Shown in pieces: positions 47,301-62,613 of a stretch of DNA of 64,000 nt. The notes beneath the pieces were generated by a model that worked only from the letters and a program-made list of their open reading frames with translations, was not told where the DNA came from and did not search any database. The position numbers and the translations under genes are program-made. Numbering within the stretch: the first letter of the stretch is position 1; every line of letters begins with the position of its first letter. Origin of the DNA: a virus (taxonomy: Duplodnaviria > Caudoviricetes); IMG/VR virus record IMGVR_UViG_3300033075_001053, positions 11,497 through 75,496 of that record; one strand, 5' to 3'.

Positions 47301-49038
47301 TACTTTGATGGGACTGCCGAACTTTACCGCTCCGGTGAAGAACCTAATCGAAGGTGGCGGGAACGCCTCGGCAGAGCTGGCCCGGCTTCAGTCAGAAATT
47401 AACGGAAGCTCCCCGACGTTTTGGTCGGCTCCGAATATCGTTGATAAGGTAATCAAGAGTCACATCAACAATTACAGTGGTGATCTTAAGACGGTCTTTG
47501 ATACCCTTTCGGGTCAGCACTTCTGGGACGCACAGTTTACCAAGCACACTACTCAAGGCAACAGAAGTGGTGAGCGGGCAATGAAGATTCTGGATAAGTC
47601 TTTGATCCTTCAGTCGTGGGTCGAATCGAATAACCGTATGATGAGTGCTATGGCAGCCGCGGACGTGTGGCTCAAGGCTCACAAGGGTGATGTTGAGGGA
47701 GCTTTGCAAGTAGCCCGTCGGACCACAAGAAGAAGCCAAGGATACTTTACTTCTGATGCCATGCTCACGCCGGAGTATATCCTGAATTCTAATCCAGTGA
47801 CGAGCATGCTCATGCCACTGTTCGCGGCAGCGGCCAGAGCTACGATGCACTACATGTCATTCCCGGTTGAGTTCTACCGCTCTCCCTCTGCCGCGGCCTT
47901 GCGTCCGATGATGTCAGCGGTGGCCACAATGGTGGCTTTAGGAGGCGCGGCCAATGTAGCTTTGACCGGCGACGCACTGAATCTTCTCAAAGGGGCTCAG
48001 CTACTATCGGCGTGGGTTTCCGGGGAGGACCCCCAAGCGATCTTAAACGAATCTCCACAAGAAGACTGGAAGCGGACTGCCCAAGGGTGGGCTAAGTCAC
48101 TCGGAGTCGGAGAGGAATTAGGGGGGCTAATCTACGACAACACCATGGATGGCCTGGTGTCAACGGCAACAGGAAAGAATCTGCAGCTCGGTAAGACCTT
48201 GACAGGAATGGTTCCTTCTGTTCTGGTGAACAGAATTTCCGACTACGCTCGGGGAGTGAAGGGAGACGCTACGACAGAAGAGAAAGTAATGCGGTGGGCT
48301 AATATTCTGGGAGGTCCGGGTTGGCAGCGCTTCGCCCGTGTTACGATGGAACTTGATAAGGGTAGCTACGTTGATTCGAAAGGTGGGACACTTGACCGCC
48401 CGTATTCTTCGGGTGACGCAATCATGGAGCTCTTACTTGGTCGGGACTTAAAAGATTTCAAAGCTTCGGAGAGAGACTACCAAAAAGGTGGGTATATGTA
48501 CGGGCAGATGGACGTCAAGAAGTTCGTCAGCCGACTCGAAGGAATTCCTGGAATTAAACTCAACCCTCGCTTCAATGCGTACATGATAGGTGACGTAAAG
48601 GCCGCCAATGATTTTCGTTACTCAATGCTGCGCTCGGCTCCAGGGTATGCTGATCAAGCTGAGCACGACAAACAAAGAGTAGAAGAGTGGCTTGCTTCAC
48701 CAAATGGGCAGAAGTTTGTGGCCCTGCGGTCTAAGTCAATGGGTCCTGACGGACAACCATTGACTCAGTACGGCAAGGCTGGTGGTGGAGAGGAGAAGGT
48801 GAAGAAGGAGGCTCTTAGCTTAATCGACAAATACTACGCTGCGGTGACATTCCTTGATGCCAGCGATAACTTACGACGGGCGGGTTACAATGACATCCCT
48901 GGTGTTTTTCACGGCGCTTCTACTGCCGCTGAGGCGAAGCAGTTTGACCGGCAAATGATTCTTGGGAAGTGGATCGTGTCTCAACTTCGTTCTGAACAGA
49001 GCGATGTGAAACATGGGCTGGATTACCTACCTCGGTAG
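41320..49038 (+). CDS. Giant ejection/cargo protein (2572 aa) with zincin-like HExxH motif
   Basis: Gly/Ala amphipathic N-terminus, Pro/Glu linker repeats, TLVHEAIHAII...NPEELVAW, C-terminal helical region; last gene of the structural operon. Confidence 0.7.
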   Translation: MIGDYLTAAFLEQVKPGLSGWDVPKQTDGFGGFNVNSILGNQQDEQRILGTQKKTDTLGNIGYGLLDVPRKVAEVAADIQKIPYFGPIASVLLASTGAAGLTQSERASSLIRRAQDEGGADRNSIAFKVGEMAGNATLFALTAGVGGAIAGSALAGSAAAETIGTAALGTRLGGYLFEGLGGAELTAHALASAGAGMATTSLGNYEAVKSGQMGLGEFAAQAALSAPFAMVGNVGVKAFNAGVGLGNRLAFMGKNALAGSIAGAGQAASATALSDVIHDQSFSNVPGAALEGAVFGAAGGGLLSAFGRRNPLPDKIPDADITQEPPTGIAPTEAPTQPKAPQTVEKTLTHGEVADKFNKTYDILGQIDKMESAPEGNGRSDKFVKGVEDEYGVKRAQDEPINDWMQRVADKSAAEGETPELFGSRVMEIAKGVAPAKEAPIPTEEPIKGEPVQKPIEEPVPVEEPIKGEPVKPEEPIVPPEQIKPVEEPVKAEPRDIADVLTDITKDVDDLMYGGGREEVNKLPSDPDFMKKMDEARSILDAMPDGVRKEHYRKTLADIEEYISRPPKPVQEPKSYDPEEQIRKELNNPEKLNLPEHEFTGTKDNAGNHHYDDVYDLAKDLGLTETGYAPLFEWLKGKEVRGTVLGKAKGSVRGQYIMGWTGRYVKDQLPRGSNGYFEPEPSRSISVDRATPASTLVHEAIHAIIDLSGAKQKSEFRHELTRVRSEVTEAITNSLKKLKNLPEHPIMGLEEAARIRAELHMDPELAAHIRDQLHANPEELVAWVFSNKEFAQYLDTIPSDVLNPQGMTETLWGRIKRVVLSFIGKETGLSGTKLDEIMLIMDKYAGIDKGAEGEPWKFATVSDMLKDYGVTDAGTQYAAKYRKKGPDETAVEEWNRKVRAGQADDEANAGGTTVPPRPEDSPAAAKTIDEIAKQYGLTRKDVRDFLDSEGIPYPKRKLAELDPETIAKIADRFAGKEKTITDDDILPYYEDFQSRVDAGEDYDKVFSEIKGKVKKDLGDKYSEFFADKINRDALGIDTYGNHPDLGGGEPEESTTEGIATGPTEKPKYISQERPKENLTTRDLLTKAAKGVAERTELVKKLVDVRQTPYNSAEYKAKILELQKHASTLKGEARDALNQILDDRIQRDYIGNLANGLSEADILRGVEKDWRNEARRINRETGAPPGSFEHVTERAPIKGGALRDLPENWEKMSAEELSGVIGKTKEVAELIKKTAPNLYSDAFLFGPMKEIWKKYPQTRMMIGSAAARLGTEFMDDDETYFGHKGREWKRLADMGVLAGAAFAGGVSAYSKIAKWANPYSPLDVLTDAIKPNFWKKGGDTKASSALRIAAYVKKEMEGFAGTDAEREAMAAALTKRAREIMKSDRVSKAGDLTITEVENPDFAKFMTIRDKVVDPTSQRLNADMKDDWDAVHGKLGGQQVAAIKDGLERFNALQKGGATQDEARATVLKELGAKWGPGVTREFTKASKGEKWNVAPKPEDMERVALTVAKVRSDLDKIRTQVSKMYEGMKKDFIIAMDDYNKTGVANSMVKNIVDFINQTKLQAMKDDPILSLFPQLHKNGPISREEWEPVFDAWASDNLRERTADYVSRIRKNYFEDRPDLFDKYNEVRDAINFQSEKGIRLAQGKIIGMENPDPNQVPAAFNEFYHTYSKNKAEYDDLVKQAKVMDKNSDEYLAAKAQIKVMAASLRTMAGKIKAYSNLDNIRQMSPEIQYLNTELGHGRGEFVVRWGKTDEDPGSMKRFESARARASWLASPEGAQAREWLKATGTTLDTPVPKKMSEYWRRSDEDVENIVKMSEMIAGGDMPVDVKLQTIIDAVNSSPRTVREAFKEWMARAQEVKDRTTLIPRNKDKVLSDINGVVADGIAIWNGYGPTKHFMGRTGVKGWMPKTGQEALMFLDETHAMMQHEIADGYGKTALQNYYVKELRRVRELGLQPEYQKFLERKLDMTVSPRNMESSNALGWKVSNSVRSFLSSTLMGLPNFTAPVKNLIEGGGNASAELARLQSEINGSSPTFWSAPNIVDKVIKSHINNYSGDLKTVFDTLSGQHFWDAQFTKHTTQGNRSGERAMKILDKSLILQSWVESNNRMMSAMAAADVWLKAHKGDVEGALQVARRTTRRSQGYFTSDAMLTPEYILNSNPVTSMLMPLFAAAARATMHYMSFPVEFYRSPSAAALRPMMSAVATMVALGGAANVALTGDALNLLKGAQLLSAWVSGEDPQAILNESPQEDWKRTAQGWAKSLGVGEELGGLIYDNTMDGLVSTATGKNLQLGKTLTGMVPSVLVNRISDYARGVKGDATTEEKVMRWANILGGPGWQRFARVTMELDKGSYVDSKGGTLDRPYSSGDAIMELLLGRDLKDFKASERDYQKGGYMYGQMDVKKFVSRLEGIPGIKLNPRFNAYMIGDVKAANDFRYSMLRSAPGYADQAEHDKQRVEEWLASPNGQKFVALRSKSMGPDGQPLTQYGKAGGGEEKVKKEALSLIDKYYAAVTFLDASDNLRRAGYNDIPGVFHGASTAAEAKQFDRQMILGKWIVSQLRSEQSDVKHGLDYLPR

Positions 49039-49930
49039 ACCACGCGTCTGAAATGATTTTCTCTGTGTGATTGATAAGTTGTACGTACTTCTGACTCACG
49101 GCCAGTGAGGAGTGATCCAGAAGTGTGGCCACCGCTACAATAGACCCGGTGCGTTGAGCTACCCGTGTGGCGGCGGTGTGCCGGAACATGTGGGGGTGAA
49201 CGCCATAACGGTCATACAAAGAGTTAATCGCAAAGCGGGAGATCTTTACGTTGGGCTCACTATAGAAGAGTAGTTCTCCCACTCTATAGGGATAGTGGAT
49301 GTAGGAGATGTAGCAATCATAAAACAATACTCCATGCGGAAGACAAACTGATTTCGGAATAAATTTTTGTACACGAACTTTCTGATTTTTTTGTCGGGTG
49401 AATTCAACCACAACAGCAGTCGGAGTTTCATATATGTCCTCCTCCTTGAGTGATAGAATTTGATCGAGTCGTCCTCCGGTGAGAAGCATAATAGCAGCAA
49501 GTAAGACATCTCGACGACGGATAAACTCTGCGTGTACCGGACCCCCTGATACGCGTCGAGTGCTAAGGCTGGTAAATATTCTCCCCAGAAGATCATCGTC
49601 GATGGATTTCTGAGAAAAATTCTGGACAGGCCGTCGATACTTCTTGACGATAGCCTCGGCCCGGCTGGTAGTAACCCCCATGAATTTAAAAATTCCCAAG
49701 CAAGAGTCCAGGACGGATCTCGTAGTTGAAATTTTTCGATGATTTCCCCTGGTCCATTGCACAATAATTTTGTCGAGGCCTTCAATCTCATCGTCATCTT
49801 TGAGTGGCTCCAGTAGTTCTTTGATAATAATGGTTGTGTATTCTATGTGCGCTTGGCTGTAGGGCTGCCCGTACTTATTAGGCTGAGACCAATACAGAGG
49901 GAGCTCGTTTAATAGTTCTCTTTTGGTCAT
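48920..49930 (-). CDS. int: Tyrosine recombinase/integrase (XerC/D-like)
   Basis: Catalytic R (LLTGGR), HxxRH (HMFRH), LDH and Y (SQKY). Confidence 0.9.
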   Translation of the reverse strand: MTKRELLNELPLYWSQPNKYGQPYSQAHIEYTTIIIKELLEPLKDDDEIEGLDKIIVQWTRGNHRKISTTRSVLDSCLGIFKFMGVTTSRAEAIVKKYRRPVQNFSQKSIDDDLLGRIFTSLSTRRVSGGPVHAEFIRRRDVLLAAIMLLTGGRLDQILSLKEEDIYETPTAVVVEFTRQKNQKVRVQKFIPKSVCLPHGVLFYDCYISYIHYPYRVGELLFYSEPNVKISRFAINSLYDRYGVHPHMFRHTAATRVAQRTGSIVAVATLLDHSSLAVSQKYVQLINHTEKIISDAWSTEVGNPAHVSHRSVQNEVETRSTSQESFAGQTASPQRQ

Positions 49931-54038: not shown

Positions 54039-54673
54039 CTAAATGTACCTATCTAATACTTCAAACTCTTTTGCCTTCAGCCACACAACGGAGTCCATCC
54101 ACCACGAAGAACTTCCATTGGTATACATAGGAACGGGAGGATTGATCTCACTCAATAGCCTCCCGTTTGGATAAAAGTCTTTGACGGCTCTATGGACAAA
54201 ACTCATAGAGTCAATCCCGTCAGGTACCTGGAGCACCATCGGGATTGTCCTCAGGCGGTCCGTCTTCTCCCGTATGTATATCAGTGCGTATCGCATATTG
54301 TGTTCCTATGTGTGCTACTGCGTCAAGATGTTCTCCTGCGATGTTCGACTCAAACGTTGAGTCGGCCAATGTCCTGTAACATTCGTCCTTGACCTTCTGC
54401 ATGGCGCCAAGAAGAGCCAGCCGGACTGAGCTGTAGGACAATTCAGTCGGTGTAAGTTCATCTGCCCATTGTTCAAGCTGAGTCATGTTAATCCTTGATA
54501 TAAGCATTAACACCAATGGTCACTTGCTTTCCGTTGACCATAGCCGTGCTCGGTTGATTGCCGCGGGTCGAGGCCACGACAATTGACTTACCTGACTTTG
54601 AGCGCGATGGCTCGATTGGAAGTGTAATAACCAAGTAATTTTGGTTATCGCGGGTTTCTACTGATGCCTTCAT
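54039..54673 (-). other. Three short hypothetical ORFs (54039-54296; 54220-54486; 54488-54673)
   Basis: ORF track plus ribosome-binding sites; the last contains the SKSGKSIVVASTRGN motif seen in small phage proteins. Confidence 0.5.
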
Positions 54674-54712
54674 AACAACTCCTATAAGTTAAATTACTGG
54701 CAATATCGCCAG

Positions 54713-54778
54713 TTGCGCCGCCGGTGGGAGTCGAACCCACACAGTAAGTGGATGAGACTTGCTGCTCCTTGCAGCGGC
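54713..54778 (-). ncRNA. tRNA-like element lacking a D-stem, CAT anticodon (pseudo-tRNA or tRNA mimic)
   Basis: Acceptor GCCGCTG/CGGCGGC; T-arm GTGGG-TTCGACT-CCCAC; anticodon arm AAGT-CTCATCC-ACTT; only 10 nt in place of the D-arm; ends G-CAA. Confidence 0.6.
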
Positions 54779-54827
54779 AATCAGAAAGGGAAAAGCCACA
54801 CCCTTTCTGGGGTTGATCGTAACGAGC

Positions 54828-55776
54828 TCACACGCCCGGTGGCCTACCCATCATATCTCTTACTCTCACACAAAGTTCAGGTTCTTCCATGTCAATGTCA
54901 GCGCAGAATCCTTCAACTCCTGCAGTGGGCTCCATAGAATACACTGCCCACTCTTCTTCTTCGTTGTCCTGGTCTCTATCTACCACGATGACGTCGTCAC
55001 CGTAGACGTTCTGGACTATGCCTCCTTCAATCACGACGATTGTCATTTCACCCTCCCACATACCATCCATTCAGAGTCAGGGGCAAAAGGATCGGGGGAG
55101 TGGAGGAATTGTTCAAACAACACCCCAAGCTTGTACGGCTGCCCACCTAATAGTATGTGCTCTGTCCAAACTCCAAAGATTCTGTACTTCTCCCCATTAG
55201 GATGAAATTTATACCAATCCCCCAGCGGCACTTCCTTAATATCCGTCCACTGTTCATAGACTGGTGGAGTAGGTTTAGGGGTGATGCGGAGTTTTACGCG
55301 ACTGTCAAATAAAGTCACCATCCATGCAACGTTTGTTACTTTTAACCATTCGTTTTCTGAAACTTCATACTCCAACTCCGTTCTATCAAACGCATCGCAG
55401 AACTCACGGATTTGTGTTGTTGTGTAGGTCATGCCTTCTCCTCCTCATTAGTTAATAAATCTGGGTATTCGTTTAGGATGGTGTCGATGATCTCGTGCAC
55501 ATCAAAATCATTGACTCCGTATCTAAGCGCAGAGATGCCGTTAATGGCTAAATGCGTTGGTTCTTTGCTTTTCAAATCAATTGCACTCTTTACTTTCTCC
55601 AAAATCTCCCTCACCGTCTTATTCGTCTGGGCTTGGGCGATGTCTTTGAGTTCTGTTATCTGACCTATCAGCTTCGCATTGTCCACGCTTGCTTGATACG
55701 CCTGACGTTCGAGGTCATGGATCATCGCCAGTAATTCTTCTCGTGTCATTTCTCTTCCCGGTGCTTCATTGCTCAT
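54828..55776 (-). other. Three hypothetical ORFs (54828-55046; 55043-55432; 55429-55776)
   Basis: Starts reassigned to the ATGA-overlap positions; the third is a coiled coil. Confidence 0.55.
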
Positions 55777-56273
55777 TGTAGTTGTTCCTGTGTTGTGATA
55801 ATATTCAATCTTGCAAATTCGCCGTGACATATTTGAGCCATTCGGTTGTATGCCAGTGCCGCTTCTATCTCTGTATCGTAGAGTCCAATGTGAGTCTTTT
55901 TGCCATTCTGCCTTATCTGTGCCCGCCATCGACCCTTAAAGAGACATACACCCAAATACATGGACATAGACGACCGCGCCGATCTGCGATTAGCGTTGTT
56001 TTGCGCACGAGAGCATATTCGAAGATTCGCTCTTGTATTGTTCAGCCCATTCCCATCTATGTGATCTACAAAAAGTCCGGCAGGACACTGCATGATGAGC
56101 CTATGCATAGCAATGCGCTGCTGTTTTTGTGTTTCCTTGCTATAGATGTTCGCAAAGGCATACCCACACGTACCACCAATTCGCGCATAATAATGCCACT
56201 TGTATCTTGATATAAGCTCAAGATCACAGTCGTCAATTACGCAGATTTTATTTTGACTTATAGCGATGTTCAT
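55773..56273 (-). CDS. HNH-AP2 homing endonuclease
   Basis: MHRLIM...VDHIDGNGLNNTRANLR (HNH) plus YLGV...WRAQIR..GK..HIGLYDTEIEAALAYN (AP2). Confidence 0.9.
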   Translation of the reverse strand: MNIAISQNKICVIDDCDLELISRYKWHYYARIGGTCGYAFANIYSKETQKQQRIAMHRLIMQCPAGLFVDHIDGNGLNNTRANLRICSRAQNNANRRSARSSMSMYLGVCLFKGRWRAQIRQNGKKTHIGLYDTEIEAALAYNRMAQICHGEFARLNIITTQEQLQ

Positions 56274-57899: not shown

Positions 57900-58301
57900 T
57901 TAGTCTTTCGTGATTAAAAATTCAAACCTTTGTTGCATTTGCTCTAAATCGCGTATTCTGTGTGTCTTTGAATGGCAAGAATCGCAAAGGGAAACCAGAA
58001 GTGACAAGTTTTGATGTTCGGTACCTCGGGTCGTATACTCAATATGATGGACTTGAATGTTCAGCACAGAGCCGCATTCCTTACAGATGTTGTTGTCTCT
58101 TTTGAGAACCAATCTTCGAATCTTTTTCCAGTATGGGGTTTGCAGAAACTCAGAGTAATCGCGAGGGAGATTTTGAGCTAATTTTTCAAAATCATCCCTC
58201 TTTTTATTTTTCTTGCTCTTCTTCTTACTCAGGTGCTTACGGGTCGCTTGCTCGGCTCGCTGCTTCGTCAGTCTAATCCTACGTTCCAGGTCCTTATCCA
58301 T
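57900..58301 (-). CDS. Small HNH endonuclease with Arg/Lys-rich N-terminal helix
   Basis: YWKKIRRLVLKRD..CKECG...QVHHIEY...LVSLCDSCH..H; N-terminus RRIRLTKQR...SKKKSKKNKKR. Confidence 0.85.
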   Translation of the reverse strand: MDKDLERRIRLTKQRAEQATRKHLSKKKSKKNKKRDDFEKLAQNLPRDYSEFLQTPYWKKIRRLVLKRDNNICKECGSVLNIQVHHIEYTTRGTEHQNLSLLVSLCDSCHSKTHRIRDLEQMQQRFEFLITKD

Positions 58302-58337
58302 GTGTATTCTCTGGTGAGCGTGAACTGAGGACACAGC

Positions 58338-58673
58338 GATAGAGACCCACCCTTTTGCAAGGATGGTGGTCGCCTATCTCGAAGTATTCTCCGGAGCCGC
58401 GAGTTACCTCGGACAGTCTACGTAGTCGTGCCGCTCGTAGACATGCAGAGTCCTTTGGATCTTGGCACAGATCCCCAGCTTACACTAATCTGCTTTGCGC
58501 TCGTGCTGTCCATACGCTTCCCTTGAGGACGTCGGCCATGCACAGGTGGGTCAAGGTGTCTTGCATAGTAGAAAAACAAATGCCTCTGATTCGAAGGGCG
58601 GGTGCGATAGCGGCAATCGGCAAGATTTACGCTATGTGTCTTTCGACACGTCCACCCTCCTAATCAGAGGCAC
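58338..58673 (-). ncRNA. Putative large structured non-coding RNA of unknown class
   Basis: Gap of more than 390 bp with no credible gene; at least 10 stems paired by hand, four GNRA tetraloops on the minus strand and a 5-bp loop-loop complementarity. Confidence 0.65.
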
Positions 58674-58724
58674 TCTTAAATTGTCTTTGTACTGACCGAT
58701 TGCTATTTTCGCTGGTCAAAATTA

Positions 58725-62181: not shown

Positions 62182-62613
62182 TTAAACAAGTCCTCTCTCT
62201 GAGAGAGCGGTGTAGTTATCGCTTGTGAGAATCAAATGATCCAAGAGCTTGATTTCGAAAAGCTTAAGTCCTTCACCAAGGCTCTTAGTAACCGCGATGT
62301 CTTCCCTTGACGGTTCTGCGTTCCCAGAGGGGTGATTGTGAACTAATACGGCGGCGCGAGCGTTCGAGAGAATCAAGAATTGCGCGATCTGCTTCGGGTC
62401 GAAGATCGAGGCGTTCAATCCGCCTTTTGAGTGCAGATACGACGCAAAGACTCTACTGGCACTATTGAGCGCGAAGATCCTCATTTCCTCATGATGATCC
62501 ATACAGTGCTCAAAGTACGGCTTCGAGACCTCGTGCATATCGGCGGGGGCTCTAATCACCTTCGAGGCTTCACTTCCTCTTTTGTAGAGGATTTCAGCTT
62601 CTTTAATGTTCAT
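62182..62613 (-). CDS. RadC-like JAB domain protein
   Basis: EEMRIFALN...VLVHNHPSGNAEPSREDIAVT...LLDHLIL. Confidence 0.9.
   Translation of the reverse strand: MNIKEAEILYKRGSEASKVIRAPADMHEVSKPYFEHCMDHHEEMRIFALNSASRVFASYLHSKGGLNASIFDPKQIAQFLILSNARAAVLVHNHPSGNAEPSREDIAVTKSLGEGLKLFEIKLLDHLILTSDNYTALSERGLV

Follow-up and report, generated by a model that had tools for sequence, protein, structure and literature searches.

The phage studied here is uncultured, with a virus record of 75.5 kb for which CheckV estimates a completeness of 97%; the window is the whole stretch of that record that was analysed, 64 kb in length, and all positions given below refer to it. The phage carries a P22-type portal, an SU10-type capsid protein, a terminase and a tyrosine integrase (48920-49930), and cultured phages are distant from it, with a portal identity of 34% at most. 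Between 48.9 kb and about 63 kb (14 kb), the minus-strand early genes overlap or abut, and one of the very few gaps, of 154 nt, is the largest non-coding stretch of this early region save the one at 58335-58724. The gap separates two minus-strand open reading frames (ORFs), i.e., an upstream early ORF (54828-55070) that encodes 80 aa (a 72-aa form is on record), ends with the stop codon TGA at 54830-54828 and has no family match, and a downstream early ORF (54488-54673) of 61 aa, which belongs to a widespread family of small phage proteins that neither Pfam nor PHROGs matches.

Read on the minus strand, the stop codon is followed by 18 nt, a first hairpin, the trinucleotide AUU, a tRNA-like element, a second hairpin, 12 nt, the sequence AGGAG, 5 nt and the ATG. 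Hairpin 1 (54782-54809, minus strand) has a 9-bp stem, CAGAAAGGG/CCCTTTCTG, and a 10-nt loop; it stops 3 nt (the AUU) 5′ of the tRNA-like element and has no U-tract. The element itself spans 63 nt (54716-54778, minus strand). Two unpaired nucleotides, C54715 and A54714, separate its discriminator from A54713, the first paired base of hairpin 2 (54696-54713, minus strand), so that both flanking hairpins are located 2-3 nt from the ends of the element. Hairpin 2 has a 4-nt loop, is followed by AAUUUAACUU and was flagged as weakly terminator-like. The spacer that completes the gap (54674-54695, minus strand) carries the ribosome-binding site (RBS) AGGAG at 54683-54679 and leads to the ATG at 54673. 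The first-pass annotation had described this arrangement as a D-armless tRNA-like element with a CAU anticodon bracketed by a 9-bp and a 6-bp hairpin. Re-reading of the minus strand finds all of its coordinates correct, as well as the 9-bp stem, while hairpin 2 reaches 7 bp once its inner G.U pair is counted.

A tRNA-like fold is thereby found at a cistron border, on the coding strand, with an RBS downstream. A search of the gap detected no sigma-70-like promoter, so that the downstream gene probably shares a transcript with the genes that precede it. The other sizeable early non-coding stretch (58335-58724, minus strand) is located beside a small HNH gene (57900-58334) and has no Rfam match at E up to 1.

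Likeness to tRNA

The 7-bp acceptor stem and the canonical T-arm reported by the first-pass annotation are both present in the element. The acceptor stem, GCCGCTG (54778-54772)/CGGCGGC (54723-54717), includes one G.U pair and directly abuts the stem of the T-arm, GTGGG-TTCGACT-CCCAC (54740-54724), the loop of which is of the UUCRANY type. In place of a D-arm with its 3-4 bp stem and GG loop, the element has a linker of 10 nt, CAAGGAGCAG (54771-54762), in which GG occurs without a stem; counting the C that follows, the acceptor and anticodon stems are 10-11 nt apart, compared to the 18-22 nt of a usual D-arm. The anticodon-like arm consists of a short stem, AAGT/ACTT, and the loop CTCATCC (54756-54750), with CAT at 54754-54752. 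U33 is present, position 37 is occupied by C instead of a purine, and the stem counts 4 bp plus a C.A mismatch. The sequence ACUGU then leads from this stem to the T-arm. The discriminator is G54716, followed by CAA, and the element starts with G at +1 (54778), preceded by U at -1 (54779). The stemless 10-nt D region with its GG, C37, the G discriminator and the CAA end had all been listed earlier and are all seen in the sequence. The parts that a decoder would need are missing or atypical: there is no D-arm, position 37 is C, and G73 accompanies a CAU anticodon.

A search of the whole virus record with RF00005 returns a single match, which is the element over its full length, with a score of 24.9 bits and an E value of 2.3e-4; the gathering cut-off of this model is 29 bits, and the same search finds no other tRNA in the phage. 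Rfam at gathering thresholds has no match in the window, and no Rfam 15 family takes in the element at threshold. At default settings, ARAGORN calls no tRNA for the element or anywhere in the window, and no tmRNA either; it calls the element only with its threshold lowered to 80%. The ARWEN mode draws the structure of the first-pass annotation, as a 'D-loop mtRNA-Met(cat)' of 64 nt, but returns 17 calls in the 64-kb window and was discarded as evidence, since such a call carries no weight. Chance was estimated by a motif scan that requires a 7-bp acceptor stem abutting a 5-bp T-stem with a TTCRANY T-loop. With G.U pairs allowed anywhere, the motif was matched in 17 of 300 dinucleotide shuffles; limited to one G.U pair at most, as in the element, it would occur about 0.003 times per window by our calculation. 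The element is a real, although sub-threshold, tRNA look-alike beyond chance, and the D-armless, CAU-carrying element first described is confirmed. A second acceptor and T-arm motif (62362-62432, plus strand; T-loop TTCAATC), which has four G.U acceptor pairs and lies antisense inside a minus-strand ORF, was rejected as likely due to chance.

The minimum free energy (MFE) fold (-25.3 kcal/mol) keeps the acceptor stem, with a probability above 0.94, but not the T-arm, and pairs the interior otherwise. An alternative tRNA-like fold lies 1.6 kcal/mol above it, at -23.7 kcal/mol. Here, GCAG (54765-54762) pairs with CUGU (54744-54741) and lengthens the anticodon-like stem to 8 pairs plus the C.A mismatch; in this extended form, the anticodon-like arm covers 54765-54741, the linker is reduced to the 6 nt CAAGGA, which retains the GG, and there is no variable loop. 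The plain D-armless cloverleaf is predicted at -18.5 kcal/mol. A shifted four-arm register is weaker (-17.5 kcal/mol) and obtains a D-like hairpin only by borrowing acceptor bases. Because nearest-neighbour energies leave out the tertiary structure of the T-loop, they do not decide between these folds.

Among Rfam models, a local cmscan over 301 nt places mascRNA-menRNA (RF01684) first, with 23.6 bits, an E value of 0.011 and a match to the full 56-position model. This is the best Rfam alignment of the element, and the two have in common a length of about 60 nt, a reduced D region, a position downstream of an end-stabilising structure and release by RNase P, which is predicted in the case of the element. 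The score remains below the gathering score of 42.5 bits, the family is vertebrate and nuclear, and the resemblance is an analogy of architecture and not homology. As for the tRNA-like domain of tmRNA, its G3.U70 identity pair is absent from the element, in which pair 3-70 is C-G.

Canonical phage tRNA-Met and tRNA-Ile2 (RF00005) share with the element the acceptor stem, the T-arm, the CAU loop and the position at an operon boundary, a frequent one for phage tRNA genes, such as the tRNA-Met near the 61-aa homolog of L075; they differ from it in that the element has no D-arm, scores 24.9 against 29 bits, carries C37 and G73 and is rejected by ARAGORN. One could nevertheless conceive of the element as a decoding D-armless tRNA, specific for Met, or for Ile2 after lysidine formation, that would be CCA-tailed, charged and used on host ribosomes. 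The 7-nt loop with U33 and CAU, the canonical T-loop, the GG of the linker and Y48 are consistent with such a function, as is the D-loop tRNA-Met drawn by ARWEN, in a phage that has no other tRNA and in which ATA represents 11% of the Ile codons. The C in place of the near-universal purine 37, the C.A stem mismatch and the RF00005 score below the cut-off speak against it, together with G73, given that Met and Ile tRNAs have A73. To our knowledge, the identity set of the element fits no synthetase. An engineered tRNA-His without a D-arm does become charged, and unadapted EF-Tu and ribosomes of E. coli make use of it (PMC11551756). The element resembles this mini HisT and the D-armless mitochondrial tRNA-Ser(AGY) in its preserved T-arm and its short acceptor-anticodon linker (6-10 nt, compared to 4-5 nt in these tRNAs), but they have been shown to decode, whereas the element has C37 (PMC11551756). 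Two statements of the same study also weigh against decoding, namely that engineered D-armless tRNAs are degraded in vivo by PNPase, which is their main limit, and that natural armless tRNAs are known from mitochondria only (PMC11551756). A decoding role is highly unlikely, although not far-fetched in view of the engineered tRNA-His; if true, it would make the element the first natural armless tRNA outside mitochondria, phage-encoded and selected, and would overturn the latter statement.

Conservation in a related lineage

The upstream 80-aa ORF gives access to a related lineage through its one homolog, P0167, which has 85% identity and is found on eight Logan contigs from one sample series. 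The related contigs (L040-L043 and L126) are syntenic with the window, with a 71-aa gene, a gap of exactly 154 nt, a 61-aa gene, small genes and a clamp gene in succession, and nucleotide identity to the window amounts to 79-81% over 2 kb. Of the four-fold degenerate sites, 86/204 (42%) have changed, with 17/59 for the two flanking genes alone, while the tRNA-like element has 0/63 changes (Fisher test, p = 4e-13 and p = 1e-6, respectively). Taken together, the element, hairpin 2 and the RBS have 0/105 changes, and the gap outside hairpin 1 has 0/126. The gap has five differences, all located within hairpin 1: three of its ten loop bases have changed from T to C (0/63 against 3/10, p = 0.002), and the closing pair C54809-G54782 is replaced by A-U in the relative, which is a compensatory change. 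Hairpin 2, the spacer and the RBS are invariant, the spacing between the hairpins and the predicted cleavage sites is kept, and no change affects the 23 unpaired bases of the element (p = 0.002 compared to local four-fold sites). The element, hairpin 2 and the RBS form the centre of the longest run of identity in the 2-kb alignment, which extends over 143 nt (54781-54639).

It could be argued that this conservation is only apparent, and that the element is the relic of a non-functional phage tRNA gene deprived of its D-arm, which a recent exchange or homogenisation between the two lineages would have made identical. Phage genomes are mosaic, high identity reaches about 45 nt into the upstream gene and about 35 nt into the downstream gene, and a score below tRNA thresholds, C37 and the coexistence of G73 with a CAU anticodon are consistent with a dead gene. 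However, recent exchange of the block is a poor explanation, because the loop of hairpin 1 behaves as near-neutral (3/10, with a compensatory pair, against 0/126 elsewhere in the gap) and because synonymous changes with 3-nt periodicity return on both sides of the conserved block. The drift of this loop and the compensated closing pair rather indicate that the block and its flanks are of equal age and that hairpin 1 is kept as a structure. The D-armless state is common to both lineages, and no relative with a full D-arm at the locus was found. The decay of a tRNA gene had been considered by the first-pass annotation, with such a relative as the preset test, and the outcome goes against it, with 0/63 changes where 42% of the four-fold sites have changed. 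A relic is therefore improbable, if somewhat less so than a decoding tRNA. As judged from the alignment, the D-armless state is older than the split of the two lineages and has been maintained since, and the element is probably a working look-alike kept by selection rather than a dying tRNA gene.

The check for conservation and covariation suggested earlier has given a mixed outcome: conservation is strong in one relative, while no covariation was seen for the tRNA-like helices, for which the two distinct sequences have no power. Cluster look-ups yielded no third lineage, a blastn search of the phage database with the 700-bp region gave no match, and IMG/VR pattern scans found no relatives of the clamp, the portal or the upstream ORF. 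Among 5.8 billion proteins, the clamp is without a close homolog, and in a HMMER search of 1.84 billion representatives its matches did not exceed about 30% identity and came from unrelated contexts. Scans of IMG/VR and JGI metagenomes for exact copies of pieces of the element returned 0 matches.

The conserved gap is set in a mosaic early region. In particular, an HNH endonuclease gene (55773-56273, minus strand) and much of 55.1-56.5 kb are without counterpart in L040, in which only short patches align.

Comparison with tRNA-derived attachment sites

The first-pass annotation had also proposed an attP-bearing tRNA fragment, i.e., that the tRNA-like stretch would be the core through which the tyrosine integrase recombines with a host tRNA gene. 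The phage does encode such an integrase, beside whose gene there is no free intergenic DNA, and the 24-mer formed by the T-arm and the acceptor 3′ strand is identical to tRNA-Leu(CAA) genes in 22 bacterial loci; a core obliged to match a host site would, moreover, likewise stay conserved. The bacterial loci that contain the 24-mer are mostly tRNA-Leu, with one tRNA-Lys among those checked, and include tRNA-Thr genes, none of which resembles the element otherwise; the 24-mer is also present in the tRNA-Leu(CAA)-type genes of three IMG/VR contigs (L002-L004). Extending it by G73, however, gives a 25-mer that occurs in 0 of 185,579 species genomes, which leaves the suggested search for an attB core in bacterial genomes without a match. 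tRNA-Leu has A73, and its variable arm is without counterpart in the element. Descent from tRNA-Leu was rejected on the ground that nothing aligns beyond the T-arm and the acceptor 3′ strand. Three further features argue against an attachment core: a perfectly complementary 5′ acceptor strand is present, for which we estimate a chance of about 0.007, the integrase is 4.8 kb distant from the element, and no arm-type repeats were found around it.

True attP fragments, such as the unannotated ones of Gordonia and Rhodococcus phages, comprise the 3′ half only and are located within about 200 bp of the integrase; the Trax sequence has arm-type repeats around its fragment and no 5′ acceptor strand. 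The T-arm and acceptor 3′ strand of the element are 86-93% identical over 29 nt to those of Gordonia phage Trax and Rhodococcus phage REQ2, but the latter are 3′ halves beside an integrase, among arm-type repeats. An attP function of the element is accordingly very remote, more so than decoding, and this part of the first-pass annotation is not supported. Lacking what would characterise a tRNA, a mascRNA, the tRNA-like domain of tmRNA or an attP fragment, the element is placed outside all four.

Two further observations concern tRNA sequences elsewhere. L002-L004 encode three tandem tRNAs of 76-77 nt that ARAGORN calls tRNA-Leu (GAG, CAG and CAA), of class-I size and without a long variable arm, and it is the CAA copy that has the 24-nt T-arm and acceptor 3′ end of the element. 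In an Armatimonadota MAG, an intact tRNA-Thr(UGU) is followed, after about 130 nt, by an orphan tRNA 3′ fragment (L008:7300-7345) composed of the T-arm, the acceptor 3′ strand, a U and CCA, which resembles the scar or attachment repeat of an integrated element.

A possible processing signal between early genes

The explanation that we tentatively favour is that the element, derived from a tRNA and devoid of a D-arm, would serve RNase P and 3′ nucleases as a processing signal at which the early transcript is cut, with the hairpins capping the resulting ends. The acceptor/T-arm stack and the T-loop are recognised by RNase P, RNase Z and the CCA-adding enzyme; RNase P accepts acceptor/T-arm minihelices as substrates, and a molecular-ruler view of RNase P has reportedly been proposed. 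A 3′ hairpin with a very short tail withstands PNPase and RNase II, and a 5′ hairpin a few nucleotides from the end withstands 5′-end-dependent attack by RNase E. In the proposed mechanism, the element would be transcribed within the minus-strand early message and would present to the tRNA-maturation enzymes a coaxial acceptor/T-arm helix of 12 bp with a canonical T-loop. Because this helix is present together with U(-1) and G(+1), host RNase P and either RNase Z or 3′ exonucleases would be expected to sever the polycistronic RNA on either side of the element. Hairpin 1 plus 3 nt would then form the end of the upstream mRNA, the start of the downstream mRNA would lie 2-3 nt ahead of hairpin 2, and both hairpins would shield the new ends from exonucleases and from 5′-end-dependent RNase E. 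The 63-nt tRNA look-alike would be released in the process. The parts of the fold, their place between cistrons and their conservation are observed, while transcription, cleavage, protection of the ends and a function of the released RNA are inferred. Two features of the element count against a processing signal, i.e., its 3′ trailer, which is GCAA and not RCCA, and the lack of the T-arm in the MFE fold.

Such processing has precedents in other systems. In E. coli, the secG-leuU transcript is separated by RNase P (PMC2241853). Plant mitochondrial t-elements, an instance of tRNA punctuation, are cut by RNase P/Z (Forner et al. 2007, PMC1920247). Like the element, they are non-decoding tRNA shapes at cistron borders that keep the acceptor stem and the T-arm, and they are presumed to act in cis as signals for RNase P/RNase Z in the making of mRNA ends. 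In contrast to the t-elements, the element is located in a phage early operon, has tight hairpins 2-3 nt away and an anticodon-like loop, and its cleavage is a prediction. By analogy, the element would be most like a t-element in its working and mascRNA-like in its architecture.

A pure cutting signal would need neither the linker nor the anticodon-like loop, and their invariance is a hint that the released RNA itself may matter; it is only a hint because the spacers around the RBS are equally invariant. This leads to another explanation, in which the released 63-nt RNA would be a trans-acting mimic that binds or titrates a tRNA-recognising protein, e.g., an anticodon nuclease or toxin, a modification enzyme or a synthetase, with processing as its route of maturation only. 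The whole element, including the CUCAUCC loop and the CAAGGA linker, is invariant (0/23 unpaired bases, p = 0.002), and an anticodon-like arm of 8 pairs together with the GG linker could give the RNA back the dimensions of a tRNA. It has been proposed that some phage tRNAs evade tRNA-targeting defences through changes in their anticodon loops, which may be counted in favour of a mimic. On the other hand, we know of no example of such a decoy. Searches with Pfam and PHROGs detected no tRNA-related enzyme in the 41 early ORFs, the larger ORFs tested or the first 11.6 kb, nor was a partner protein found in these early ORFs or the first 11.6 kb. The spacers and the RBS being as invariant as the loop, conservation is not specific to the loop. 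A trans-acting mimic is unlikely, although it is a better candidate than a relic. With regard to the tRNA mimic proposed by the first-pass annotation, the idea of a conserved non-decoding look-alike holds, while its specific form, a decoy for anticodon nucleases, is unsupported, and a processing role suits the hairpins better.

The usual view of phage tRNA genes is that they supplement the codon supply or replace tRNAs that host defences have cut. The element is not easily either of these, yet it has remained invariant while about 40% of the neighbouring synonymous sites turned over. If it is indeed a processing signal, some phages would order their early messages through the tRNA-maturation enzymes of the host, as organelles do, with hairpin caps in addition, and the annotation and engineering of phage operons would be affected. 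If the released RNA is active, it would represent a new class of small RNAs missed by standard tRNA finders and Rfam 15.

The family of the downstream gene offers some context for a separator at this position. The 61-aa protein family, recognised by the motifs SKSGK(S/T)xV(V/I)A and (I/V)GVNAY, is present at at least 128 IMG/VR loci, and the gene of the homolog usually opens a transcription unit, preceded by a terminator and a promoter. In four other phages, the 61-aa homolog comes first behind a terminator and/or a strong promoter, at a unit boundary, which makes this a natural place for a unit separator; in the present phage, the boundary appears to be marked post-transcriptionally. The association of the family with tRNA or tRNA-like genes is rare, with 2/80 IMG/VR loci (L045-L124) in addition to the window, and this rarity also weighs against a processing signal. 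One of the two loci, L077:1370-1438 (IMGVR_UViG_3300014204_000930), holds a tRNA-shaped element that scores 48.1 bits with RF00005 and from which the 7-nt anticodon loop is precisely missing, leaving a stem GCCAA/UUGGU without a loop; ARAGORN does not call it. It lies 15 nt past the 61-aa homolog and 2 nt before the AGGAG of the next gene, and the parts that it has in common with the element of the window are the acceptor stem and the T-arm. The other, L075:1261-1334, is a canonical tRNA-Met(CAU) with a score of 67.7 bits, located about 290 nt downstream of the 61-aa homolog.
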